The translations under genes were made by a program, and so were the position numbers. Shown piece by piece: positions 4,795-60,633 of a stretch of DNA of 64,000 nucleotides; positions within the stretch are counted from its first letter, which is position 1, and every line of letters starts with the position of its first letter. This DNA comes from Nannocystales bacterium (GTDB lineage Bacteria; Myxococcota_A; Polyangia; Nannocystales; Nannocystaceae), in NCBI GenBank assembly GCA_050633305.1, contig JBOEGF010000024.1, positions 64,001-128,000 on the forward strand, in the 5' to 3' direction. The notes under the pieces are model-generated. The model worked only from the letters and a program-made list of their open reading frames with translations. It searched no databases and was not told the origin of the DNA.

Positions 4795-7700
4795 ATGATG
4801 TCAAACGTGACTAACACGAACACCGGACTCCGCGCGCTATGCTGCGTGTCCATGCTGTCGTGTCTGCGTCGTGCGCTTGGCGTCTTTTTCTGCGGCGTCT
4901 TACTCGTCGCCGCCTGCAAGAGTACGGACGCCTCGCCGTCGGTCCAAGATTCCCGCGAATCCAACGCGAGCTCGGGTGGGGCGGAAACGCCCGCGCCAGA
5001 TCTCGCGGACCGCGCCTTCCCGCTGCTCGCCTGGGCGGTTCACATGGTGAAGACCGAGTACTTCGACCAGGGCCGCTTCGATGGGCGCGCTCAGCTTGCC
5101 TCGGCGCTCGAGGGGGTCGGAATGCAAACGCCCGAGTTCTTCGCGGAGCTGGGCGGCGACTCGGTCGTCCTTCGGGTTCGCGGGGCCAGTTCAACCTTCA
5201 ACATCGCCGACGTTCGAACGATCGATGACGCTTCACTCGCGCTCGAGGAGATGCTGGTGTTCGCGCAGACCGAGCTCGACCTCGACCCCGAGGCCTTGCA
5301 TGCCCTGGAGTACGCGGCGATCAACGGGCTCCTGGCGCCGCTCGATCCCCACACGATCCTGCTGACGCCGGAGGAGCACGCCGACCTTGGAGAGCGAACG
5401 CGGGGTTCCTTCGGAGGGATCGGGGCAGAGATTCGGGTGGAGAACCGCGCGGTCTTGGTCGTTCGTGTATTGCCCGACATGCCGGCCGAAAAGGCCGGTC
5501 TGCAGGGTGGCGACATCCTGCTGCGTATCGGTGGCCGATCGACGGTCAGCATGAGCGTGACCGAAGCGCAGGAGTTGTTGCGAGGCCCGGTGGGGACGCC
5601 TGTCGAGGTGAAGGTGCGCCGCAAGTCCAAGTCCTTGGATGTGACGATCGAGCGCGCCGTCATCCGCCTCGCCTCGGTCACCGCCACCGCCTTGCCCGGA
5701 GGCGTCAGTCACTTCCGTATCTCGAGCTTTCAAGAGGATACCGCCGAGAAGCTTCGCGAGGCGATCGCTGCGGCGAGTGCTGCCGGGGCGCTCAATGGGA
5801 TCGTGCTCGATCTTCGCGGCAACGGAGGGGGGTTGCTGGTCCAGGCGACGCAGATCGTCGATCTCTTCGTGCCTCGCGGCGAGCTCGTGATCGTGCGAAG
5901 CGTCTACGGTCGGGAGGTCGACGAGGCGACGGATGCGACCGCGGTTTCCGGAGATGTGCCGGTGGTGGTGTTGGTCGACGAGCAGGCGGCGAGTGCGTCC
6001 GAGATCGTCAGCGGAGGGCTTCAGGCCCTGGGGCGCGCCATCATCGTGGGACGTTCGACGTTCGGCAAGGGGTCGGTACAGGTCGTCCGCCCTGCCTCCC
6101 CCTACGGGCGGGAGCTCGCGCTCAAGCTGACGATGGCCGAGTACCTCGTCGCGGGCGACAAGCGCATCCAGGCCCGCGGAGTCGTCCCGGACCTGGAGTT
6201 GCTCCCGGTCGAGCCGACGGGGTTGGACCACGTCGTTCGTTACTACGACGTCGAGCGCTTCGAGCGAGCGCGCGAGCGGGCCCGCATGGCGCACCATCCC
6301 TCGGCCGGACACGAGAACCTCGATGCCGCGGTGCGCGAGCCCGATGCGCGGCTGCGGTACCTGGCGGACCTCGAGTTGCCCGCTGCGTTGAAGAAACAAC
6401 CGGATGTTCCGCCGCTGATGCGTGACCCAGAGGTTCGCATCGCGGCCGAGGTGGCGAGAGCTGTGCCCTCGCGCCTCGATGCGGAAGGACGTCGCACCTC
6501 GGTCGCTCGGCTCGCGGCGTCGTTGGCCGCAAACGAGACGCCCCGCATCGCCGACGCCCTGGGAAAGGCCGGCGTGGCGTGGGGTGCCGAGGGGGCCACC
6601 GACACGCCGCTGGATGCGACCGCTCGCATCGTGACCCCTCTTCCGATCGAGGCCGGCAAGACGTTCGAACTGGAGGTCTCGGTCACGAACCGGTCCTCCG
6701 AGACCGCGCACCGCGTGCATGCGATCACGGACTGCGAGCGGGAGCGACTCGACGGCATTGAGGTGCTCTTTGGGGACATCGAGGCGGGGCAGACCCAGTC
6801 TCGGACGATCGAGCTCCACGTGATGCCGTGGTACGCGGATTTTGTCGGGGACCTCGACGTGCAGGTTCATGTCGGCGAGCCCGACGAGACCCCCGACGCC
6901 ACGTCTCGGGCGATCTTCGAGACGCAAGCGAAGCCTCGCCCCGCGCTGTCGTACGACGCTTGGATCGTGGATGACCCGGCGTTGGTCGCCAAGGCCCCGC
7001 GTCGTCCCGAGTCCGAGCCTGTGCCGGGATTGCCCGAGTTCTCGGTGCAGGGCAACGGCGACGGAATGCTGCAGCCGGGCGAGCGGGTGCTGCTTGCATT
7101 TCGGGCCTACAACCACGGGGATGGCGACAGCCCCGATGTGCGTGCCTTCTTGCGGAACCTCAGCGGCGACCAAGGTCTGCTCGAGGAGGGATTCGTGCAA
7201 CTTGGGGCCATACCGGTCGGAGAGTCCGTCTCGGGCGCCTTCGGAATCTGGGTCAAGCAGAACGCGGACCCGAGTCGGCCGTTCTTGCTCGATCTGACGG
7301 TCGGTGACGTTCAGCTGCGCATGACCGTGTCCGACGCGATGTCGCTGAAGGTGCTGTCGAACTCGGGCGAGCCGGCGACGCTGGAGCGTGCGATTCGGGT
7401 CGACGGTGACGCGCTGCAGCTGCGCCGTGGAGCCCATGCGTCCTCGGCCGTCGCTGCCGACGCGTCCGTATCCACCGTCCTGTCCTTGGAGGGCAAGGTT
7501 GGGTCGTGGCTGTATACGACCGCCCCGGACGAGCCCAGCCGTCGATGGTTCGTCGCCGAAGACCATGGAGGTTTCTCCGACCACGAGTCCGAGTCCGGTG
7601 CGCCCAAGGGGCTGGTGGCCCGTCGTTCGGTCCGTCCGCCCACCCTCGAGGTGAAACCGATCCCACGCCGTACGACGGCCGCCGCGGTCACCCTCGAAGG

Positions 7701-44507: not shown

Positions 44508-45836
44508 TCACGGGGTTGGCTCGAACACGCTCGTCCCAGGACCCATGCGTTGCTGCAGACGGGAGACTCGGGGCTCGTCCACGTGCACGGGGCCTTCTGC
44601 CTCGCGTCGGCCCGTATCGACCCACTCGCGCACGATGCGGTACAGGCCGTGGTCGAACGGGATGCCCGGTGCGGCCGCGACGGGCTCGATGCGTTCCCGT
44701 TGCCCTTGTCGCTCCATTTCGAGCGCTCGATGGTGGCAAAACGGGTTGTTTCCAGGGCGGCCCATCAAGGGCTCGGATGTCGCGGTGCACCCGCCTCGGC
44801 ACGTGTCGGCGTAGTAACACTGGGCACAGTAGCCCCACAGTTCGGCCGTGCTTCGCTCGCGGATGTACGCCAGCTCGGCGGAGCGAGCCCACAGCTCGCG
44901 GAGGGAGTGTTCGCGGATGTTGCCTCCGACATTCTCGGGCCCTCCGAGGCTGGGGCAGCCCTTGATGTCGCCGTGCGACTCGATCCCGATCTGTGCGCGC
45001 CCCGCTGCGCACCCTTTGTAGTGACGCTTCTGCAGCGAGCGGAGTTCGGCTTCGAGGGGCCCGAAGTACCCGAGGTTGTTGCCTGGCCAGATCTTGATGC
45101 CGCGCTCTCGGGCCCGCGCGAGGAGCGGTCGCAACACCTCGAATACCTCCAGCATCATGTACGGCTGCAGCAGAATCTCGGGGTGGTCGGCCGCGTTGCC
45201 GAACGGCGATGTGATCTGTAGTTGCCATCCGAAGGCCCCCGCGTCGCCGATGCGCTCGAGGAGCGTCGGGAGGTCGTACAGCGTGCGTCGGTTGATCTGC
45301 GTGTTCACGCCCACCGGAATCCCGGCCGCGCGTAGACGCCCGATGGCCTCGAACGCCTTGTCGTGGCTGCCCGGGATGCCCCTCAATTCATCATGGGCCT
45401 CGGCCAACCCGTCGACCGAGATCGACACGGTGCGAATCCCGGCCTCACGAAGCGCCCCGACTCGCGCTTGCGTCAGGTTGAGGCCGCCGGTCGTCATCGT
45501 GACGGACATGCCACGCGCACGGATCTCGTTGACGATCAGGACGAAGTCGTTGCGCAGATAGGCTTCGCCACCGACCAGGGTGACCTCGCCGACGCCCATG
45601 TCCGCGAGCTGCCCCACGAGGTCCAGGCACTCGTCCGTCGTCAGCTCGTCCTTTCTCGCCTTTCCGGCTCGAGACCCGCAGTGGATGCAGCGCTGGTCGC
45701 AAGCCAACGTAATCTCCCAGACGGCGTAGCGCGGGGTCGGGACTTCGCCCGCAGGCGTGTCTCGCAGCCGCCGTTGGTCGGGCGTTGGCAGATCTTGAAG
45801 CACCCGTAGGCGCCGTCTGGCGTCCTCGAGGCGCAC
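44508..45836 (-). CDS. Radical SAM/SPASM maturase, PlpX/splicease-like (copy 1)
   Basis: GTG 1 nt after upstream stop; AVWEITLACDQRCIHCG (Cx3Cx2C), GGEAYLR, SPASM CAAG..GIES.GDIKGCPSL..CAQCYYADTCRGGC..GNNPFCHHRAL..RERI..PFDHG. Confidence 0.88.
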   Translation of the reverse strand: MRLEDARRRLRVLQDLPTPDQRRLRDTPAGEVPTPRYAVWEITLACDQRCIHCGSRAGKARKDELTTDECLDLVGQLADMGVGEVTLVGGEAYLRNDFVLIVNEIRARGMSVTMTTGGLNLTQARVGALREAGIRTVSISVDGLAEAHDELRGIPGSHDKAFEAIGRLRAAGIPVGVNTQINRRTLYDLPTLLERIGDAGAFGWQLQITSPFGNAADHPEILLQPYMMLEVFEVLRPLLARARERGIKIWPGNNLGYFGPLEAELRSLQKRHYKGCAAGRAQIGIESHGDIKGCPSLGGPENVGGNIREHSLRELWARSAELAYIRERSTAELWGYCAQCYYADTCRGGCTATSEPLMGRPGNNPFCHHRALEMERQGQRERIEPVAAAPGIPFDHGLYRIVREWVDTGRREAEGPVHVDEPRVSRLQQRMGPGTSVFEPTP

Positions 45837-45837
45837 G

Positions 45838-46665
45838 TCAGGCCGGGGTGCAGACGTCGGAATCCAGGGCCTTGTCGGCGACGGGCTCGCACGCCTCGTC
45901 CTTCGCACAACTGGCGACCTCGGGGTCGCAGGTTTCGAAGCACAGGGGGAGCGCGCCCTCGAACTGCACCACACATGTCCCTTCGAGGCATACCGGGGCG
46001 TCCTCCGAGTTGCTGCACATCTCGACGCAGACGCCCTCCGTGGTCTTGGCATCCACGTAGAAACACATGGCTCCGAGCACACAGGTATCGATACCTGTCG
46101 TGCCGCTTCCTTCGACGGTGCATGGCTCGCCCGGGCCGACTGGAGCTGGGTCGATCGGCGTACATCGGCTGGCGTTCCAGACCTCCCCGCCGTCGTTCGC
46201 CCAGGGCATGCATTTCTCTCCCTTGGCGCAGTCCTGCATGAACACGTCGCACTCGTAGGAGAGGTCTCCAACATCTGTCGGACACCCGCCGTAAAAGCCT
46301 CCGCAAGAGTCGAAGGTGTCGTCGTCGAGCGTGGTGCTGTCGCCGCCGGTCGTCGTGTCCCCGATGTCCGTTCCGCCCGACGTGGTCGCAGCTGGATCGG
46401 TCGTGGTCGTCCCCGGCGGGGGGAGTGTCGTCGCGACGCTGGGATCGCCGGAGCTCGAGCTGGTCGAGCTCGGTGAAGACTCATCGGTCGTATCTCCCGC
46501 GTCCGACACCGCCGGTCCACATGCGCTGAGAACGGCACCGACCGCGATGACCATGACGGCGACCGGAATCCGCTGGGGAGGCGTCGAGCGAAGCGGCGAC
46601 GAGCAAAACGGACAAGCCGGTTCCGCGTCGAGAACATGACGTGTGCAAGACGGGCAGGGCAGCAT
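45838..46665 (-). CDS. Candidate precursor lipoprotein 1: Zn-ribbon leader, lipobox, S/T-rich stalk, CGGFYGGC motif, Cys-rich C-terminal domain
   Basis: MLPCPSC..CPFC; VGAVLSAC; S/T/G/D linker; DSCGGFYGGCP; CDVFMQDCAKGEKCMPWANDGG Cys-rich module. Confidence 0.8.
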   Translation of the reverse strand: MLPCPSCTRHVLDAEPACPFCSSPLRSTPPQRIPVAVMVIAVGAVLSACGPAVSDAGDTTDESSPSSTSSSSGDPSVATTLPPPGTTTTDPAATTSGGTDIGDTTTGGDSTTLDDDTFDSCGGFYGGCPTDVGDLSYECDVFMQDCAKGEKCMPWANDGGEVWNASRCTPIDPAPVGPGEPCTVEGSGTTGIDTCVLGAMCFYVDAKTTEGVCVEMCSNSEDAPVCLEGTCVVQFEGALPLCFETCDPEVASCAKDEACEPVADKALDSDVCTPA

Positions 46666-46705
46666 TGGAGTACGATAGCTTTGTTGGAGTTCGTTTTGGT
46701 AGAAA

Positions 46706-49443: not shown

Positions 49444-49968
49444 TCAGGCGCCTTCCTCACGCTTGCTTTGTGCCGCGAAGTTCCACGCACGGGGGAGCGC
49501 GTGTCCACAGAGGTCGCACTCGAACCATCCGTCCTTCACGAGGTTTCGCTCACCGCAGTTGGGGCACAGGCGGAACGTGTACGCTTGCGTGAGCGCCTCA
49601 GGGCAGGGGATCCCGAGCGCGACGAAGGCCTCGTGGGCGGCCTCCCAGCACCCGGGGTCGGGGCAATAGCCCGTGGACTGGTTCGAGACGCCGATGATCG
49701 CGAGGTCGGGTTGGCGTGCGAGCATCAGCTCTCCTGCTGCGAGCACGGGGCCGCCGCGGGCACAGGCCACATGCTCGGACCGTTGCGGCGCAATCCGAAG
49801 TGTCCCGTCCTCAACGACGACGAACGTCACCGTCAGCACCTCGCCCTCCCACTCGTCTTGTTCGCCGGCCCACGCGAGCAACACGTCCGCTCGGGTGACC
49901 GACACGCCCGAGTCGTCTCCTGCGACCGCCGCCTTGATCTTCGCCGGTCCAACATACTGATAGAGCAT
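49444..49968 (-). CDS. Hypothetical protein with C-terminal zinc ribbon
   Basis: YQYVGP, RSEHVACARG..VLAAGE, SNQSTGYCPD, CPNC..CDLC..LPRAWNF. Confidence 0.7.
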   Translation of the reverse strand: MLYQYVGPAKIKAAVAGDDSGVSVTRADVLLAWAGEQDEWEGEVLTVTFVVVEDGTLRIAPQRSEHVACARGGPVLAAGELMLARQPDLAIIGVSNQSTGYCPDPGCWEAAHEAFVALGIPCPEALTQAYTFRLCPNCGERNLVKDGWFECDLCGHALPRAWNFAAQSKREEGA

Positions 49969-50184
49969 GACCATCCTGTCCCGACAAGGGTGCCACGGGA
50001 GACCTCGGGCACGGGAGAATCCGTGAAAGGAAGTCGATCGCCTGGTTCGAGATCGCCGGGGTTGGAGCACGGTGGAGGCCAGCGGCTTTTCCCGCGACTG
50101 CCTAGCTAGGGCTCAATCGGCCGAGGTTTCGATGTTCGTGTCGCTTGCGGCGGACCGTCGGACGGCTCGCGCCCGCTTGACGGT

Positions 50185-53629: not shown

Positions 53630-53726
53630 ATGCCGGAGACCTCCCGTCCGGACTCATCCCCCGTCTTCCGGACTCATCTCATGCCGGAGACCTCCCGTCC
53701 GGACTCATCCCCGTCCGGACTCATCT
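53630..53726 (-). repeat. Second repeat array downstream of the transposase, inverted relative to the upstream array
   Basis: TCCGGACTCATC at 53647, 53667, 53698, 53714; 32-nt duplication at 53630 and 53681; reverse complement shares CCGGACG..GGTCTCCG with the upstream unit. Confidence 0.8.
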
Positions 53727-55693
53727 TCCGGGGCGTCGTGCCACTGCGCCTGCTTGGCCGGCGCATAGATCCCGAACGACCAGATCTGGCGGGTCTTGGA
53801 CACGTCGACCAAGATCCACGTCGGGTCGGGTCCAGCAGGAACCTCGATCGGCATGACGCTGGGGAAGTTCTCCGTGCCCCGGTACTGGAAGGGAACGACC
53901 GCTCCTCGGAAGACGCGCTCGTCACCCGACCACACCGTCAGTCCCACGTAGTAGCGCCAGATCAACGGAACGGTTGTCTCCGTGCTCGCTGACAACCGCA
54001 CCGCGAGAAACCCGGGCTGTCCGTGAAGCGTTCCGTCGAGGTCAAAGGCTCCGTCCTGCGCTTCGAGACGCGTCCAGCTCGGGTCGGTCGTACTCGTGGG
54101 TGGTGGCGGCGGAGTCTCCCTGTCCCAGGCCCGGATGTACGCGACCGGAACCGGTGTGTGGGGATCGACGCGACGGATCTCTTGCAACACGACCCCGTCT
54201 CGCTCGATGCGCCGAACCACCTCTCCGGGCAAGGTCGACTCCCAGCCCTGGCGGACCTCCGACAGGAAGAACTCGAAGTGGTCGGCGTTGAGCTGGAGGT
54301 CGTGCTTCCAACCCAGGTACGATCCGAGCGCCGAACCGTTGCCGACGATGTGGACGGCGGCACCGGGGTGTTCGTCGCGGAGCCAGTGAAATCCTTCTTG
54401 GTACGTCTCCGAGTAGTGCGCGACGTCGAATCGCCCTCGTGCCCCCTGCGTTCCGCCGACGAGCGGATTGAAGTACAGCGAAGCATAGGGGTGGAGCCGA
54501 GCGCTGGCGGTTGTGCTCTCGGCGACGCCCAGCACCACCGCCACGGCCGCGATGCACCTCGCCCGGGTCCCCAGACGAGCCACGCGCACCCAGCCGACGG
54601 CCGCCAGCACACAGATGGGGGGAACCATGAACAACAGATGGCGCGAGGTGTCGTACAGCGTGGTCTGTTTGAGCACGGGAACCAGTGCCGGGCCGACCGT
54701 CCAAGCGACCAGCAGCACCCAGCCGAACGCGACACGGGCCCTCGGTCGGTTGCGGACCGTTGTCCAAAACAGTCCGCCAAGCGTGGCGACGAATCCGAAG
54801 ACGACGGGAACGGGGAGGGTGATGCCCAACCACACGACAACGTAGCTGGAGGGCGCATCCCAAAACGGGTGGAGTTCGCCCATGAACAGGCTTCGTGAGC
54901 CGTGCACGTGGCGCGTCAGATCCATCGATGCCGTGACGAGATGCCATGGCGGTCGTACCCAGAGCACGGGCCAGGTCGCGAACGTGATCGCATACGCGAC
55001 CACCAGTACGGCGCCAATGCGAAGGGCCACGGCCCGCGCCTGAGATTCGCAGGGGCGGCCGACGACGACCGCGCTGGCCGCAACGAAGTAGAACACAACA
55101 CCGAACGGGCGAATCGTCGCGCACAGCCCCGCCAAGATGCCGGCGGTGATCAGGCGTCGCCGGGTCGGTTCGTGGGCGAGACGGATGCACGCCCACGCGG
55201 ACCAGACCGCGGCTGCGGAGAACGGGATGTCCTTGGGGTTCACACACGCCGAGCCCCAAACCCGGGGGGCGGTCGCAAGGAAGACCATCGCAAGCAAGGC
55301 GACAGCTTCACCACCGAGCGCTTTGGCAAGGCGATGTGTCCCCAGCAGCCCGAGCCCCGCGGCGAACAGGTTGAGCACATGGCGGGCGAAGAACTCGTCC
55401 GTCCCCCCGAACCAGTGATGGTCCGCCAGCCAGGCCAGACGCCCCATGAGGTCGTAGAGCACGCCGTAGTACTCCCGCTCAGGCATCAGCGTGTACGCCT
55501 CGATCTCGCCAGTCGCGAGTGCGTCCATCCACCCGCGCGACCACAGCATCCGCCACGGCTCGTCCGTCGTCGGCCCGTAGTCCTGGGCGACCGTCAGCCC
55601 GATGCCCCAGAACGCCACGAGAACGACCCACGGCCCCACCTTCCAGAGCCGGTGAAGACGTGAACTCGGGTCGATCGCCTCAGACGAGCTCAT
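53705..55693 (-). CDS. GT-C fold glycosyltransferase (PMT/ArnT-like, GT39/GT83)
   Basis: Start MSSSEA overlaps the rSAM 3' end; DYGPTTDEP after first TM, EYYG, NPKDIPF, multiple TMs, YDTSRHLLF, HPY..YFN. Confidence 0.8.
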   Translation of the reverse strand: MSSSEAIDPSSRLHRLWKVGPWVVLVAFWGIGLTVAQDYGPTTDEPWRMLWSRGWMDALATGEIEAYTLMPEREYYGVLYDLMGRLAWLADHHWFGGTDEFFARHVLNLFAAGLGLLGTHRLAKALGGEAVALLAMVFLATAPRVWGSACVNPKDIPFSAAAVWSAWACIRLAHEPTRRRLITAGILAGLCATIRPFGVVFYFVAASAVVVGRPCESQARAVALRIGAVLVVAYAITFATWPVLWVRPPWHLVTASMDLTRHVHGSRSLFMGELHPFWDAPSSYVVVWLGITLPVPVVFGFVATLGGLFWTTVRNRPRARVAFGWVLLVAWTVGPALVPVLKQTTLYDTSRHLLFMVPPICVLAAVGWVRVARLGTRARCIAAVAVVLGVAESTTASARLHPYASLYFNPLVGGTQGARGRFDVAHYSETYQEGFHWLRDEHPGAAVHIVGNGSALGSYLGWKHDLQLNADHFEFFLSEVRQGWESTLPGEVVRRIERDGVVLQEIRRVDPHTPVPVAYIRAWDRETPPPPPTSTTDPSWTRLEAQDGAFDLDGTLHGQPGFLAVRLSASTETTVPLIWRYYVGLTVWSGDERVFRGAVVPFQYRGTENFPSVMPIEVPAGPDPTWILVDVSKTRQIWSFGIYAPAKQAQWHDAPEDESGRG

Positions 55694-57011
55694 CGATCGT
55701 TCGTCCGGGCCCGGTCCACTCGATCGTTCGGTCCACCCGGGGTTCTTCGATCGCCACGGGACCCTCGGATTCGCGCCGTGCTTCGTCGACCCACTCTCGA
55801 ACGATCCTGAACAGCGCGAACGCAAAGCCGTCGTCCGCCGCGGGCTTCACAAGCTCAATGCGCTCCCGCATGCCCTCCTTCTCCATCTGGAGCGCTCGGT
55901 AGTGGCAGAAGGGATTGTTGCCCGGCCGCCCCATCAGTGGCTCAGAGACTGCCGTACATCCTCCCTTGCAGACGTCCGCGTAGTAGCACTGCGCGCAATA
56001 ACCCCACAGATCCGTTCGGGTCCGGTTGCGCAGCGAATCGATCTGCGGCTTTGTCCACAGGGCCGCGAGACCCTCCTCCCGCCACGAACCACCGACGTTC
56101 GTCGGGCCACCCAATGAAGGGCAGTTCTTGATCGCGCCGTTGCTCTCGATGCCGATCGTCGACTTGCCAGCCTCGCACCCACCGAAGTGTCCCGTTCGCA
56201 TGCGCTGCTTCGCGCGCAGTTTTCGCTCGACGGGGCCGAAGTAGCCCAGAGAGTTCGCCGGCCAGATCCGAACCCCGAGTTCCTCTGCGCGGTCGCAGAC
56301 GGCGTCGAGGGCTTCAAAGACTTCGAGCAGCATGTACGGCTCCATGACCAGCTCGAGGTTGTCGGCCGCGTTTCCGTGCGGCACGGTGATTTGCAGCTGC
56401 CACGAGTGGACTCCTTCGGCCGCGATCAGCTCGAGCAAGTCCAGCAGTTCGAACCGGGTGTACGCATTGATCTGGGTGTTGACCGCCACGCCACATCCCG
56501 CACCTCGCAAATACCGGAGAGCCCGGAACGCATGCTCCCAGCTGTCCTTGGTGTTCCGGACGAGGTCGTGGCTCTCTTGCATGCCGTCGATCGACAAACT
56601 CACACTCTCGATGCCCGCCTCCACGAGGGCTTCGGCGCGATCCTTCGTCAGGCCATATCCACCCGTCGTCATCGTCGCGGACATGCCGAGTTCCCGAATC
56701 CTGCGTACGATCAGGATGAAGTCGTTGCGCAGGTACGCCTCGCCTCCGATGAGGACCACCTCGCCGACCCCCATCTCGGCCAGCTCTTCGGTCAGCTGTA
56801 GTGCCTCGGCGGTCGTCAGCTCGTCCGGACGCGCGTCCGCAGCCCGAGGGCCGCAGTGTAGACAGCGCTGGTCACATGCGAGCGTCAGCTCCCAGACCGC
56901 CAGACGCGGAACTGGAACCTGGCCCGGCAACGTGGCCTCGAAGCCTCGGCCGCGCGCGACCGGTAGCGAGTCGACGATCGGAAGGTGATGCTTGGCCTCC
57001 CGGAGTCTCAT
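55680..57011 (-). CDS. Radical SAM/SPASM maturase, PlpX/splicease-like (copy 2)
   Basis: GGAGG RBS and ATGA overlap with precursor stop; AVWELTLACDQRCLHCG, GGEAYLRND, CEAG..GIESNGAIKNCPSL..CAQCYYADVCKGGC..GNNPFCHYRAL. Confidence 0.9.
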   Translation of the reverse strand: MRLREAKHHLPIVDSLPVARGRGFEATLPGQVPVPRLAVWELTLACDQRCLHCGPRAADARPDELTTAEALQLTEELAEMGVGEVVLIGGEAYLRNDFILIVRRIRELGMSATMTTGGYGLTKDRAEALVEAGIESVSLSIDGMQESHDLVRNTKDSWEHAFRALRYLRGAGCGVAVNTQINAYTRFELLDLLELIAAEGVHSWQLQITVPHGNAADNLELVMEPYMLLEVFEALDAVCDRAEELGVRIWPANSLGYFGPVERKLRAKQRMRTGHFGGCEAGKSTIGIESNGAIKNCPSLGGPTNVGGSWREEGLAALWTKPQIDSLRNRTRTDLWGYCAQCYYADVCKGGCTAVSEPLMGRPGNNPFCHYRALQMEKEGMRERIELVKPAADDGFAFALFRIVREWVDEARRESEGPVAIEEPRVDRTIEWTGPGRTIDELV

Positions 57012-57451
57012 GCCTCCTGGTCCGAGTCCGTGGGTTCTTCCCAAACCGACGATCCGGTCGAAGACGAGGAGGTGCCGGGGCCGGCGTAGTACGAGCCGCC
57101 GAAGTCCGTCGTGCTGCTGCTGGAGTCGCCGCCGGTGGTCGAGCTGGTCGAGCTGGTCGAAGCCGGCCCCGCGTAGTACGAGCCGCCAAAGTCCGTTGTG
57201 GAGCTTTCGTCGGCGGTCGTGCTGCTGCTCGTCGAGGCGTCGGTCGTCGACGAACTCGATGCTGACTGAGTGGTGGTCCCCGGTCCGGTCGATGCGCCCG
57301 TGTCCCCATCGCTGTCGCAGCCGACGAGACTGAGCCCCAAGGAGAGGCCGAGCACCGCGGCGGCTCTCGCAGTTCGCGAGGGTGCCTTGCAATGAGGGCA
57401 CACGGTCTCCGAGGCGACCACGAACTGATCACATGTCATGCAAAGTCTCAT
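57008..57451 (-). CDS. Candidate precursor lipoprotein 2: Zn-ribbon leader, lipobox, S/T-rich stalk, two TTDFGGSYYAGP cores
   Basis: MRLCMTC..CPHC; LGLSLVGC; SSTTDFGGSYYAGP twice, 29 aa apart. Confidence 0.85.
   Translation of the reverse strand: MRLCMTCDQFVVASETVCPHCKAPSRTARAAAVLGLSLGLSLVGCDSDGDTGASTGPGTTTQSASSSSTTDASTSSSTTADESSTTDFGGSYYAGPASTSSTSSTTGGDSSSSTTDFGGSYYAGPGTSSSSTGSSVWEEPTDSDQEA
57077..57199 (-). repeat. Two coding copies of TTDFGGSYYAGP (about 57077-57112 and 57164-57199)
   Basis: Identical 12-aa peptide with synonymous nucleotide differences (gaag/aaag, gtc/gtt, ccg/ccc). Confidence 0.9.
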
Positions 57452-57521
57452 GCGTACTCAAGTCGCAACCGACCCCGATTCGATCGGTTGCATGTTGAAA
57501 AAAAACGCTACTCTGGGGAAG

Positions 57522-58169
57522 GTGGCCGCCGATCGCGTTTTGCTTGAACGTTGGCGGAACGGCGATCGCACCGCGGGAGAGGCGCTCTACCGCAACTGGG
57601 TGGGGGCGCTCTCACGCTTCTTTCGAAACAAGGTGAGCGATCGTGAAGAGGTCCCCGACCTGGTTTCGCAGACGTTCGTCGCCCTGACTGAAGTCAAGGA
57701 CCGGTTTCGAGGCGAGTCGAGCATCCGGCGTCTGGTCTTCAGCGTGGCCAGCAACGTCCTCTCCACGTACCTGCGCAAGCGCTACAAGCGAGCCCGCGAG
57801 GCGAAGGACTTCGACGCACTGTGTGTGGCGCAGGTTTCGGCGCACGGGCCGAGTTCCCTGGTCGCCCAAGAACGGGGGCTCCGGGCCTTCGTGGATGGGC
57901 TCCGGCAGCTTTCCCTCGGCGACCAAACGCTCCTCGAGCTGCGCTACTTCGAGGGGCTGACCGGTCCCGAACTCGCCGACGCGTACGACGTGCCCGAGGG
58001 CACGATTCGGGGTCGAATCGGGCGAGCCGTCGAGCGGTTGACCCGCGTGGTCGCGGAAAACCTGGGTCACGCGCCCGGCCGGAGTGATGCACCACAGGTC
58101 GACGAGGTGGCCTTGGGCGGTTGGGCCCGCGCGCTTCGGGTCCAGCTGGGACGCGACCCCGATGCTTGA
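57522..58169 (+). CDS. ECF-type sigma-70 factor
   Basis: DRVLLERWRNGD..AGEAL, DLVSQTF, FRGESS, LELRYFEGL..ELA...VPEGTIRGRIGRA; alternative start at 57492. Confidence 0.88.
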   Translation: MAADRVLLERWRNGDRTAGEALYRNWVGALSRFFRNKVSDREEVPDLVSQTFVALTEVKDRFRGESSIRRLVFSVASNVLSTYLRKRYKRAREAKDFDALCVAQVSAHGPSSLVAQERGLRAFVDGLRQLSLGDQTLLELRYFEGLTGPELADAYDVPEGTIRGRIGRAVERLTRVVAENLGHAPGRSDAPQVDEVALGGWARALRVQLGRDPDA

Positions 58170-60633
58170 GGACCCCCCCCACAGTGTTCACGGAGGGCGG
58201 CTTCCGTTCGACGAGCGCTGGATGCGACGCAAGTCGCGGGTGGCTCTCTTCGGTGAGGACGGCGCCCTATCCCTGGGTCGTTACCAAATTGGCGAACGTC
58301 TCGGGGCCGGGGGAATGGGCACGGTCTACTCGGCGTGGGATCCGGAACTCGAGCGCAAGATCGCGATCAAGGTTCTCCACCATCGAGATTCGGACGCGGC
58401 CAGACGACTGCGGCAGGAAGCTCGAGCGCTGGCCGCACTCGCGCACCCCAACGTCGTCACCGTGTTCGAGGTCGCGCATGCATCCAGCGAGGTGTTCCTC
58501 GTGATGGAACACGTTGAAGGAAGCACGCTTCGCGACTGGCAAGGCGCGGAGGGCCGACGCGTCGGCGAGGTCCTGGGCGCCTACCACCAAGCGGGGCTGG
58601 GGCTCGCCGCGGCACATCGCGCGGACTTGGTTCATGGCGACTTCAAGCCCGACAACGTGCTCGTCCACGCCGATGGGCGAGTCCGTGTTGCCGACTTCGG
58701 CCTATGCGGACGCGGACCGACCCCGGGCTCGGACTCCGAGGACCACGGACAAACGCGTGGTGGAGGAACCGCCGCCTACATGGCGCCGGAGCTGCAGCAG
58801 GACGCTCGGGCGGATGCGCGCAGCGACCAGTTCGCGTTCTGCGTCTCCCTTCGCGAGGGACTGCGGACCGCCGAGGGGCGAGTACCGCGGCGTGTACATC
58901 GCGCAGTCGAACGAGGCTTGTCGCGGGATCCTGACGAACGGTTTTCTTCGCTCGAAGAGCTGTTGCGGGCGATCGAGCCGCGTAGTCGTTGGTGGATCGG
59001 GCCAACCGCAGGGCTGGCGGCCGCCGGGGTACTTCTGGCGATCGGGTCTCGCGATCCTTGCTCCGAGTCTGCGCGGCGCGTTTGGTCCGAACACCGGGCT
59101 CTCGTTCAGCCCGAGTTTGAGGCCGGGGAGCCCCGCTGGGTTGCCTCAACGTGGCGTGGAGTCGATCAAGCGCTGCAGGCCCACGAGAATGCCTTGGTGC
59201 TGGCGGGCGATGATGCGTGCCGGGCCGCGGACCACCGCACCCCAGTGTTGTCCGAGCGAGCGCAGACGTGTCTCGAAACGGCGTCGACCGAACTCGACAC
59301 TTTCATCGAGCGCCTCCTCGAGTCCGACGCTTCGGTGCTCGCAACCGCGGCGCTTCGCGTCTCGCTGCTCACCCCGGTCGAGCGCTGCCGAAACGAGGCG
59401 ACGCTCGAACATCTCGAACCGCGGCTCGACCCAAGACGGCATCAGCGGTTGGTCGATGCGGCCGTCTCGTTCGCTCGCCTTCCCAACGTCCCGATCAGCG
59501 CTGATGAGGCGGAACAGCGCGCGGGGATCGAAGACGGAGGCATGACCGCGTCGCTTGCGCTGAGGGTCAGAGCCCAGTCGGCGATCTCCGAGGGGAGGCC
59601 GTCCGATGCGGTCACGGACCTCAAGCGGTCGGTCGCCATCTCCGAGCGGCAGGGGGATGACGCCGCTCGTGTTCACGGCCTCGCGCTGCTCGCCTTCGCC
59701 ATCGGCCAAGACACACAACGCCTTCGCGAAGCCGAGCAGATTGGGGTTCAAGCCCTGTCCGCTCTCGACGCGATGTCGCCCCAGCCGATTCTTCGCGCCC
59801 GCCTCTTGCACGACCTGGGGTCGGTGGCTGCCCACGCTCGGCCGCCAAGTCTCGAGGACGCGATCGCACGACATGAGGATGCCGTCGCAACCCTCGAGCA
59901 ACACGTCGGAGCGGAGCACCCGCTGACCCTCCGGGCTCGACTGAGCCTTGGGTCGGCGCTCAGTCTTGCGGGGCGCCATGCCGAAGCGGTGTTCTTGCTC
60001 GAGAGCACCGACGCCGCAGTTCAGGGCGTTTGGAAGCACCAAGAGCCTACGTGGGCTCGAGCCCGCCGTGCGCTGGGCCTCGCACACTTGGCAGCGCGAA
60101 ACCACGCGGATGCCCTCGAGGTCCTCTCCGATGCTCGAGAGGCGAACCGAGAGCGAGGTGCGCCCCCGTTGGAGCGCGCGTACGACCACTACAATCTTGC
60201 CCTGGTTCAGCGCCGGCTCGACCGTCCTGCCGATGCTTACGCCGAGCTCGAGCGGGGTTATCCCATCGCGCGCGAGGCACTGGGAGCTGAACACCCCGAG
60301 CTCACCCCTTGGCTCGCGCTTCTCGGGCGCACGGCCCTGAAGCTCGGGCGCGATGCCGAGGCCGCGCGATGGTTCGAACGCGCGCTTTACCTGTGCGAAC
60401 TCGACGGCGCGGAGCCCAAGGAATTCGCCAAGCTTCGACTCAATCTCGCAGAGGCGTTGCGCGAGAGCGATGCCGAAACAGCCCGAGTTCACGCAGACGG
60501 CACACGCCGCTTCCTGGCGCAACAGCCCGAGGGGACGTACAAGAAGCTCCGCGCGCGCCTGCAGGCGTTGACTGAAGCGTTGGTCACAGACCGAGCTCTG
60601 CCAGGGTCCGAGGCGCCACTTCAAAGCCGTTGA
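58162..60633 (+). CDS. Ser/Thr protein kinase with TM and TPR repeats
   Basis: LGAGGMGTVY, AIK, HGDFKPDNV, DFG, GTAAYMAPE; TPR-like GAEHPLT/GAEHPEL; start overlaps the sigma stop. Confidence 0.92.
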   Translation: MLEDPPHSVHGGRLPFDERWMRRKSRVALFGEDGALSLGRYQIGERLGAGGMGTVYSAWDPELERKIAIKVLHHRDSDAARRLRQEARALAALAHPNVVTVFEVAHASSEVFLVMEHVEGSTLRDWQGAEGRRVGEVLGAYHQAGLGLAAAHRADLVHGDFKPDNVLVHADGRVRVADFGLCGRGPTPGSDSEDHGQTRGGGTAAYMAPELQQDARADARSDQFAFCVSLREGLRTAEGRVPRRVHRAVERGLSRDPDERFSSLEELLRAIEPRSRWWIGPTAGLAAAGVLLAIGSRDPCSESARRVWSEHRALVQPEFEAGEPRWVASTWRGVDQALQAHENALVLAGDDACRAADHRTPVLSERAQTCLETASTELDTFIERLLESDASVLATAALRVSLLTPVERCRNEATLEHLEPRLDPRRHQRLVDAAVSFARLPNVPISADEAEQRAGIEDGGMTASLALRVRAQSAISEGRPSDAVTDLKRSVAISERQGDDAARVHGLALLAFAIGQDTQRLREAEQIGVQALSALDAMSPQPILRARLLHDLGSVAAHARPPSLEDAIARHEDAVATLEQHVGAEHPLTLRARLSLGSALSLAGRHAEAVFLLESTDAAVQGVWKHQEPTWARARRALGLAHLAARNHADALEVLSDAREANRERGAPPLERAYDHYNLALVQRRLDRPADAYAELERGYPIAREALGAEHPELTPWLALLGRTALKLGRDAEAARWFERALYLCELDGAEPKEFAKLRLNLAEALRESDAETARVHADGTRRFLAQQPEGTYKKLRARLQALTEALVTDRALPGSEAPLQSR

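Follow-up and report, generated by a model that had tools for sequence, protein, structure and literature searches.

A putative four-cysteine metal ribbon upstream of the lipoprotein signal: a predicted docking module of candidate spliceotide precursors in a Nannocystales bacterium

Organization of the locus

The window analysed here, a stretch of 64,000 nucleotides from a Nannocystales genome of 11 Mb and 66% G+C, carries on its minus strand two gene pairs, each consisting of a precursor gene translationally coupled to a gene for a radical SAM/SPASM enzyme. Precursor 1 (45838..46665; 275 aa, ATG at 46665 and stop at 45838) is followed by the X1 gene (44508..45836), whose GTG start lies 1 nt past the precursor stop, while precursor 2 (57008..57451; 147 aa, ATG at 57451) shares an ATGA overlap with the X2 gene (55680..57011).

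Precursor 1 is laid out as ribbon, signal, Ser/Thr-rich linker, FYG site and Cys-rich domain, and gave no Pfam or NCBIfam match. The putative metal ribbon occupies residues 1-21 (46603..46665, minus strand; MLPCPSC-x10-CPFC, with Cys4, 7, 18 and 21) and is followed by the n/h-region with the lipobox LSAC (46519..46602, minus), in which Cys49 is the predicted site of lipidation and of LspA cleavage. The predicted splice site, F124-Y125-G126, lies within a CGGFYGGC loop (46282..46305, minus), where relatives show FYG or FYA. The Cys-rich domain is common to 36 other proteins of the genome; lipoproteins with this domain form a large unannotated family, with 37 loci in the genome.

In precursor 2, the ribbon again covers residues 1-21 (57389..57451, minus; MRLCMTC-x10-CPHC, motif at 57442-57389), ahead of an n/h-region with lipobox LVGC (57317..57388, minus) whose processing at Cys45 is predicted. 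The mature part is of low complexity, rich in Ser, Thr, Gly and Asp, and YG is found nowhere in the protein; instead, YYAG occurs twice (57167..57178 and 57077..57088, both minus), each a candidate non-canonical Tyr-Ala site. Both same-genus orthologues keep the ribbon and contain SYYAG twice.

The arrangement described in the initial annotation, by which both precursors open with CxxC-x10-CxxC followed by a hydrophobic stretch and a lipobox, was thus confirmed from the sequence. Its restriction to these two proteins also held: when the window was searched roughly for lipoboxes, 15 candidates emerged, some of them spurious, and these two alone bear the ribbon. This head is not due to chance, since 21 intact proteins of the genome and one frameshifted copy share it. 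Database listings name the clusters only as 'hypothetical protein', and the ESM Atlas gave no match at 0.9 or more. Elsewhere in the window, an unrelated 208-aa protein (49444-50070, minus) has a C-terminal CxxC-x12-CxxC motif, and a pair formed by an ECF sigma factor and a Ser/Thr kinase-TPR protein (57438-60633, plus) is divergent from precursor 2.

The splicease-family enzymes

X1 and X2, which are 58% identical, are assigned by sequence to the tyramine-splicease (PlpX) family. Both are radical SAM and SPASM proteins homologous to PlpX, with ~46% identity between the enzymes here and annotated family members, and each adjoins a precursor gene; the conserved Xaa-Tyr-Gly expected of a PlpX-type substrate is present in precursor 1 (FYG), precursor 2 being the exception. 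The best family matches of X1 are TIGR03913 (435.5 bits) and TIGR04103 (435.2 bits), with E about 2e-130 as against 4e-46 for the next family, and X2 scores 381 bits with TIGR04103 and 373 with TIGR03913. All these values lie below the cut-offs, so that neither enzyme belongs to type I (TIGR04103; 435 and 381 bits against 725) or to the GDL type (TIGR03913; 435 and 373 bits against 591.75). Moreover, the TIGR03913 match of the enzyme stops at profile position 396 of 477. Five splicease genes are present in the genome.

No Nif11 leader was matched, and the absence of RRE and protease genes noted initially was borne out: the sole PqqD match of the genome, the only candidate for a Y/RRE partner, lies on another contig and does not adjoin a splicease, and no protease family was found among the 11 window proteins scanned. 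Assignment to the TIGR04133 rSAM/lipoprotein system was rejected, X1 scoring 157 against a cut-off of 425. Directly after X2 lies a gene for a PMT_2-type glycosyltransferase (53705-55825, minus), the precursors being Ser/Thr-rich; membership of this gene in the system is not supported, as it follows the X2 orthologue in just one of four other loci checked.

Start codon and expression of the ribbon

The proposal of a ribbon leader would fall if the true starts lay downstream of it, the ribbon being then untranslated or an incidental reading frame. For precursor 1, six same-genus orthologues were compared: 14 of codons 1-21 keep the residue while the third base varies, and pairwise differences over codons 2-22 number 30, 61 and 160 at codon positions 1, 2 and 3, respectively. 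Judged by this pattern, the ribbon is subject to coding selection, which contradicts a later start; furthermore, no downstream start codon common to the six orthologues was found. A wider set was obtained from the best 150 database matches to a leader profile by removing 34 with several stretches (repeated ribbons), and in 101 of the remaining 116 precursors the first Cys stands 3-8 residues from the start.

The signals upstream of the genes lead in the same direction. A -10-like hexamer, TATCGT (46672..46677, minus), is placed 6 nt before the precursor 1 ATG, with no Shine-Dalgarno sequence, and a TAnnnT hexamer at this distance is kept in 6/6 orthologues, which makes a leaderless precursor 1 mRNA probable. 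Over the genome, TAnnnT precedes the start by 5-8 nt in 13 of the 22 precursor genes, compared with 1811 of 237830 ATGs (0.8%) and 240 of 2525 long ORFs (9.5%), and these hexamers suggest that precursor mRNAs are leaderless more generally.

Precursor 2 is where a later start finds some backing: no TAnnnT box precedes its ATG, and its ESM Atlas record begins at residue 33, indicating that the gene caller picked a later start. A protein beginning at residue 33 would, however, keep just 12 uncharged residues ahead of the lipobox Cys. On the coding-type conservation, the lack of a common later start, the start-to-Cys distance and the TAnnnT box together, a downstream start was ruled out, and it is regarded as extremely improbable.

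Lipoprotein signal and predicted export

Behind the ribbon, the sequence has the positive n-region, uncharged h-region and lipobox Cys by which lipoproteins are recognised. A canonical lipobox is found in 87 of the 116 database precursors and at least a relaxed one in 113; 114 have no charged residue in the 12 positions preceding the Cys, and 94 have a linker of net positive charge. The Cys itself is invariant in 38/38 aligned leaders. The genome holds the processing machinery, with three LspA and four Lgt genes. Tat export was rejected as a general route, twin arginines occurring in 10 of the 116 linkers and in neither of the two window proteins.

The main rival to removal by LspA is that the hydrophobic stretch acts as an uncleaved anchor. 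The ribbon would then remain as the cytoplasmic domain of a single-pass membrane protein; rather than being discarded, it might bring the enzyme to the membrane or serve as a metal sensor. Lipoprotein signals do not usually have some 30 extra residues at their N-terminus, which counts for such an anchor, as do the uncharged runs of 18 residues or longer found in about a quarter of the precursors and one member of the genome without a good lipobox (LGTC), whose tail is hydrophobic and then basic. Nevertheless, the uncharged run before the Cys has a median of 14 residues and is most often 13, which is short for a membrane span, and neither the invariant Cys nor the frequency of the canonical lipobox fits a mere anchor; this alternative is consequently considered unlikely.

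The conserved lipobox, together with the lgt and lspA genes, leads us instead to infer cleavage of the precursors by LspA. This peptidase is established to cut before the lipobox Cys, according to PMC13056109, and ribbon and signal would therefore leave together. The same source provides a precedent for removal of a RiPP signal peptide by LspA in the DAG-RiPPs.

The ribbon fold and its predicted contact with the enzyme

At 21 aa, with its four Cys and without a helix, the ribbon module does not qualify as an RRE (PqqD fold), and it gives no PF05402 match. It fits a zinc ribbon in pattern and fold, its predicted structure in precursor 1 reaching pLDDT 85-88, with every Pfam ribbon match remaining below cut-off. 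The nearest solved sequences are zinc fingers or ribbons (ZC4H2, MAT1, Nop10 and Spt4).

The initial annotation had recommended modelling the leader with the radical SAM enzyme. The complex of X1 (410 residues modelled, numbered from window position 45827) with residues 1-32 of precursor 1 and zinc scored 0.70, whereas the best of three controls scored 0.01. Of 157 solved complexes, 116 attain the mark applied, as do 2 of 215 mismatched pairs. This calibration is only rough here; custom alignments and a zinc ligand were used, unlike in the calibration set. The partner had a pLDDT of at least 78, and agreement of contacts between the runs was 100%. Searches by sequence and by fold found no solved splicease structure, so it is unlikely that the model recalls a similar complex.

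In the modelled interface, ribbon residues 1-3, 7-10, 12 and 19 meet residues 255-261, 268-269, 338-339 and 342 of X1. The main predicted docking surface is the FGPLEAE loop (residues 255-261; 45045..45065, minus), and the second predicted contact (338, 339 and 342) is the YYADT segment in the SPASM CxxC-x5-C loop (44802..44816, minus). On the enzyme side, G256, E259, Y338 and Y339 are invariant in 30/30 sequences; on the ribbon side, conservation is not limited to the Cys but extends to His10 (92%) and Pro19 (97%), which are exposed on the surface and lie in the interface. The docking loop is conserved also in the type I Nostoc splicease, which has no ribbon, and hence this surface is not ribbon-specific. 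As a prediction, the model supports binding of the ribbon to X1.

The position of the second contact bears on the nature of the metal. If the knuckle bound iron, as a rubredoxin type with a short spacer, the substrate would deliver a redox part beside the SPASM auxiliary cluster. The predicted contacts Y338, Y339 and T342 lie inside the CxxC-x5-C loop, which we take, by analogy with anSME-type enzymes, to belong to the SPASM cluster; in addition, a rubrerythrin-like domain model picks up 11 of 38 leaders (best E 1.5e-4), and the module is fused to the enzyme in the GDL type. Against iron stand the zinc proteins found as nearest solved sequences, the lack of such a module in the type I enzyme examined, and the location of the main contacts on the YFGPxE loop. 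Iron is accordingly held to be quite unlikely, and zinc is favoured.

Enzymes carrying the same ribbon

The TIGR03913 profile reaches beyond the end of the enzyme match, and residues 2-30 of precursor 2 match its positions 429-457 of 477 (E 0.0014). In line with this, among the matches listed, 118 of 120 GDL-type homologues of the Aquimarina enzyme bear a C-terminal ribbon, the other two being short. At the C-terminus of GDL-type enzymes from Azospirillum, Aureibacter, Aquimarina and a Crocinitomicaceae genome stands CxxC-x10-CxxC with a helix, and in a GDL enzyme model the fused ribbon reached pLDDT 93-96, with a chain pTM of 0.88. The DUF1843 peptides at four GDL loci have YG, or YA at the corresponding place, at about residue 5-13 and no ribbon; having the module built into the enzyme, such peptides would need no leader.

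Many generic ribbon families also match the ribbon weakly, and generic zinc-ribbon likeness as the source of the TIGR03913 match was ruled out by a ranking control. When a profile of the 118 fused ribbons was applied to the 146 CxxC-x9/10-CxxC motifs of this genome, precursor leaders took the top 17 places; the precursor 2 ribbon obtained 34.8 bits and the best non-leader 16.0 bits, with five leaders below the latter. Fused and precursor ribbons alike have a Leu at -3, follow their first knuckle with His/Tyr-Val, and contain C-P-F/H-C.

Of the myxobacterial enzymes, 33 were checked and all lack a ribbon of their own, as does the type I Nostoc enzyme. The splicease of Tropicibacter oceani, encoded on plasmid NZ_CP124618.1 (L047:2683-4305), bears a ribbon at its N-terminus (residues 14-36), together with a degenerate signal-like stretch. 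A quick tree nests it in a clade of enzymes whose ribbon is on the precursor (99 SH-aLRT). By its sequence, it is a natural enzyme-leader fusion, and one separate from the GDL type. No ribbon precursor was found among the neighbours at this locus; the gene at 6447 encodes an LYG motif. The same tree gives no direction of ribbon transfer, support for the GDL group being 35 and the outgroups long.

With the same knob on the enzyme in other bacteria, the ribbon appears to be a portable element by which the enzyme is activated. Richter et al. (PMC11414181) found that PlpY and the RhaA leader act as activators whether they are provided as a protein of their own, on the substrate, or by fusion to the enzyme's C-terminus; a ribbon of another fold with the same three-way mobility in nature points to a module for docking and activation and not simply to a brake on export.

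A delay of export had been the second function proposed initially. In its strict form, the ribbon would be a folded block before the signal that does not bind the enzyme and gives a leader-independent splicease time to act. As the enzyme is cytoplasmic, modification must precede export, and PlpX works without a leader (PMC11414181), both of which agree with such a delay. The homologous ribbon is, however, found on cytoplasmic enzymes that are not exported, and His10 and Pro19 are conserved in the modelled interface. Delay until modification is complete thus has no support of its own and is judged very unlikely as the function of the ribbon, though it could arise as a by-product of binding.

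Co-occurrence of ribbon leaders and spliceases

The enzyme is present in 68 of 72 genomes of the order, and no true leader was found in the four genomes without it (90-95% complete). Around the 30 closest enzyme loci, a ribbon precursor lies within 1.5 kb in 24 and is missing at that distance in six. Across 301 genomes of the phylum there were 93 with enzyme matches and 56 with leader matches, 53 having both; as the genomes are kin and the tallies not independent, these counts are descriptive. Of the three leader-positive genomes lacking an intact splicease match, the first carries a splicease gene, next to the leader, that is frameshifted, and the other two have generic ribbons with neither lipobox nor YG. 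Full leaders are thus confined, among the genomes surveyed, to those with a splicease gene. Conversely, 25 genomes combined a strong enzyme match with no leader match, and 20 loci, taken from 19 of them, were inspected: a more divergent gene with ribbon, lipobox and YG adjoins the enzyme in 15, and no ribbon precursor occurs within about 2.5 kb in the other five.

Ribbon precursors across the genome and their Tyr-Gly sites

The genome-wide scan for further substrates suggested by the initial annotation returned the N-terminal ribbon and lipobox proteins that had been predicted. Among the 21 intact precursors, five adjoin a splicease, five are clustered ~10 kb from another splicease and 11 are orphans. 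YG occurs in 20 of the 21, and 36 of their 47 tyrosines precede Gly. With an automatic filter, which overlooked eight of the 21, YG was found in the first 150 mature residues of 12/13 ribbon lipoproteins and 256/1276 others. The 116 database precursors, not chosen for YG, divide into 99 with YG, eight with YA only and nine with neither, several of the latter being short.

The Cys-rich-domain family offers a comparison within one genome. Ribbons are borne by two of its 37 proteins, both adjoining spliceases, and these two are the only ones with YG within 60 residues before the domain; one paralogue without a ribbon has YG at the first residue of the domain. Two members of the family appear to have been recruited as splicease substrates.

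Several of these genes deserve mention individually. On contig C14, five tandem ribbon-lipoprotein precursors with two YG sites each (C14:153522-155950) lie ~10 kb from the splicease gene at C14:165345-166604. A ribbon precursor on contig C16 (C16:57062-57600) contains two frameshifts, with ribbon, signal and TYG in three frames, and is either a pseudogene or an assembly error. Finally, the ribbon protein with the weak lipobox LGTC (C47:32929-33426) has an HYG site and a C-terminal tail, hydrophobic then basic, which is perhaps a second sorting signal.

Proposed mechanism

Taken together, the evidence from sequence and modelling makes it likely that the substrate brings a docking and activating module of its own and that LspA then removes this module with the signal, leaving a lipid-anchored keto-amide protein. 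The ribbon would be a four-Cys metal knuckle, most likely binding zinc, that serves as docking and activating module in a two-gene spliceotide system. Translation of the precursor with the ribbon first is well supported. According to the model, the ribbon would then fold in the cytoplasm and bind to two parts of the splicease, its YFGPxE loop and the YY segment of its SPASM region; the tethered and activated enzyme would excise tyramine at Xaa-Tyr-Gly, and perhaps at Tyr-Ala, in the disordered region, giving, by the chemistry of the family, alpha-keto-beta-amino acids. Sec export, lipidation by Lgt and cleavage by LspA would subsequently remove ribbon and signal in one piece, and the lipid-anchored keto-amide product could plausibly act as a protease inhibitor in the envelope. 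By bearing the ribbon, the orphan precursors would likewise be marked as substrates in trans for the five spliceases.

The ribbon had originally been put forward as a maturase-recognition leader. Binding to the enzyme is borne out by the co-occurrence, the Tyr-Gly association, the natural fusions and the complex model; the role of recognition by a leader is not, because a ribbon located on the enzyme cannot recognise a leader. The better reading is of an activating piece that belongs to the enzyme and is supplied by the substrate. So read, the ribbon resembles PlpY and the RhaA leader, as these are presented in PMC11414181. The same paper reports that PlpX is leader-independent and that RhaX, when deprived of its leader, retained a conversion of about 50% with one substrate; in vitro, therefore, the ribbon may be dispensable.

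A bolder and more tentative reading, to which slightly less than an even chance is given, is that the ribbon is a detachable splicease domain, which evolution has put either on the enzyme (in the GDL type and, separately, at the N-terminus in Tropicibacter) or ahead of the substrate's signal peptide. In myxobacteria it would be used as a genome-wide address tag, so that every lipoprotein gaining the knob and a Tyr-Gly site is turned into a backbone-spliced, lipid-anchored keto-amide protein. If so, the myxobacterial surface would carry ~20 tethered proteins of the protease-inhibitor type, and LspA would discard the 21-residue tag.

Relation to known systems and significance

The closest functional parallel is the type II system RhaX/RhaA of Rheinheimera which, according to PMC11414181 and PMC11626197, also uses a PlpX-family radical SAM/SPASM enzyme and Xaa-Tyr-Gly sites, lacks a separate Y/RRE gene as does the system here, and has a substrate whose N-terminal part docks on the enzyme and activates it; in the same sources, Cys-flanked cores occur in RcsA/RasA as well. 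Whereas the docking element of RhaA is an alpha-helix, that predicted here is a four-Cys knuckle placed ahead of a lipoprotein signal; moreover, the substrates are 120-350 aa long and mostly encoded far from the enzyme genes, and some have Tyr-Ala motifs only. With the type I systems PlpX/PlpY/PlpA and PcpXYA (TIGR04103), the X1 system shares the enzyme family (435 bits), the GYxGPxE loop and the target motif; it differs in having neither Nif11 leader nor Y protein, X1 and X2 being below the cut-off of 725. The GDL maturases (TIGR03913) with their DUF1843 peptides combine the same enzyme family with a homologous CxxC-x10-CxxC ribbon, but there the ribbon is the C-terminal domain of the enzyme and the peptides, of about 60 aa, have no leader or signal, while here it is on the substrate and the enzyme has none. 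A DUF1843 search of this genome gave 0 matches, its control likewise matching nowhere.

As regards export, the DAG-RiPPs, e.g. DybA/DybH, are similar in being modified in the cytoplasm and then processed by Lgt, LspA and Lnt with no dedicated protease, and different in their chemistry, that of an MNIO with a C-terminal motif (PMC13056109). Its authors expect leader-independence or followers for such RiPPs; unlike in the DAG-RiPPs, an N-terminal module precedes the signal peptide here. The words 'zinc' and 'spliceotide' are absent from that paper. Judged by title or abstract, no description of a zinc-ribbon leader or of lipoprotein spliceotides was found among the papers listed by literature searches. 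Scott et al. 2022 describe 27 enzyme-substrate pairs, as cited in PMC10849128, and may already cover myxobacterial precursors, in which case the system would be less novel, though not necessarily the ribbon. New here is the ribbon fused to GDL-type spliceases at the C-terminus and to one other splicease at the N-terminus.

The system would join two known logics, radical SAM protein splicing and RiPP-lipoproteins, in a way unforeseen in the DAG-RiPP paper, an N-terminal recognition module being made compatible with a signal peptide by its placement upstream of the signal. It also offers a function for the unexplained C-terminal domain of the TIGR03913 enzymes and a natural counterpart to engineered enzyme-leader fusions, and a portable 21-residue tag with a housekeeping peptidase as remover could serve protein engineering. 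Furthermore, with a splicease in 68/72 genomes of the order, abundant unannotated keto-amide lipoproteins are predicted in myxobacteria. One precursor subgroup (loci L055, L057 and L071-L073) has YG right after the lipobox Cys (CYG), and here the residue that is lipidated would also take part in the keto-amide.
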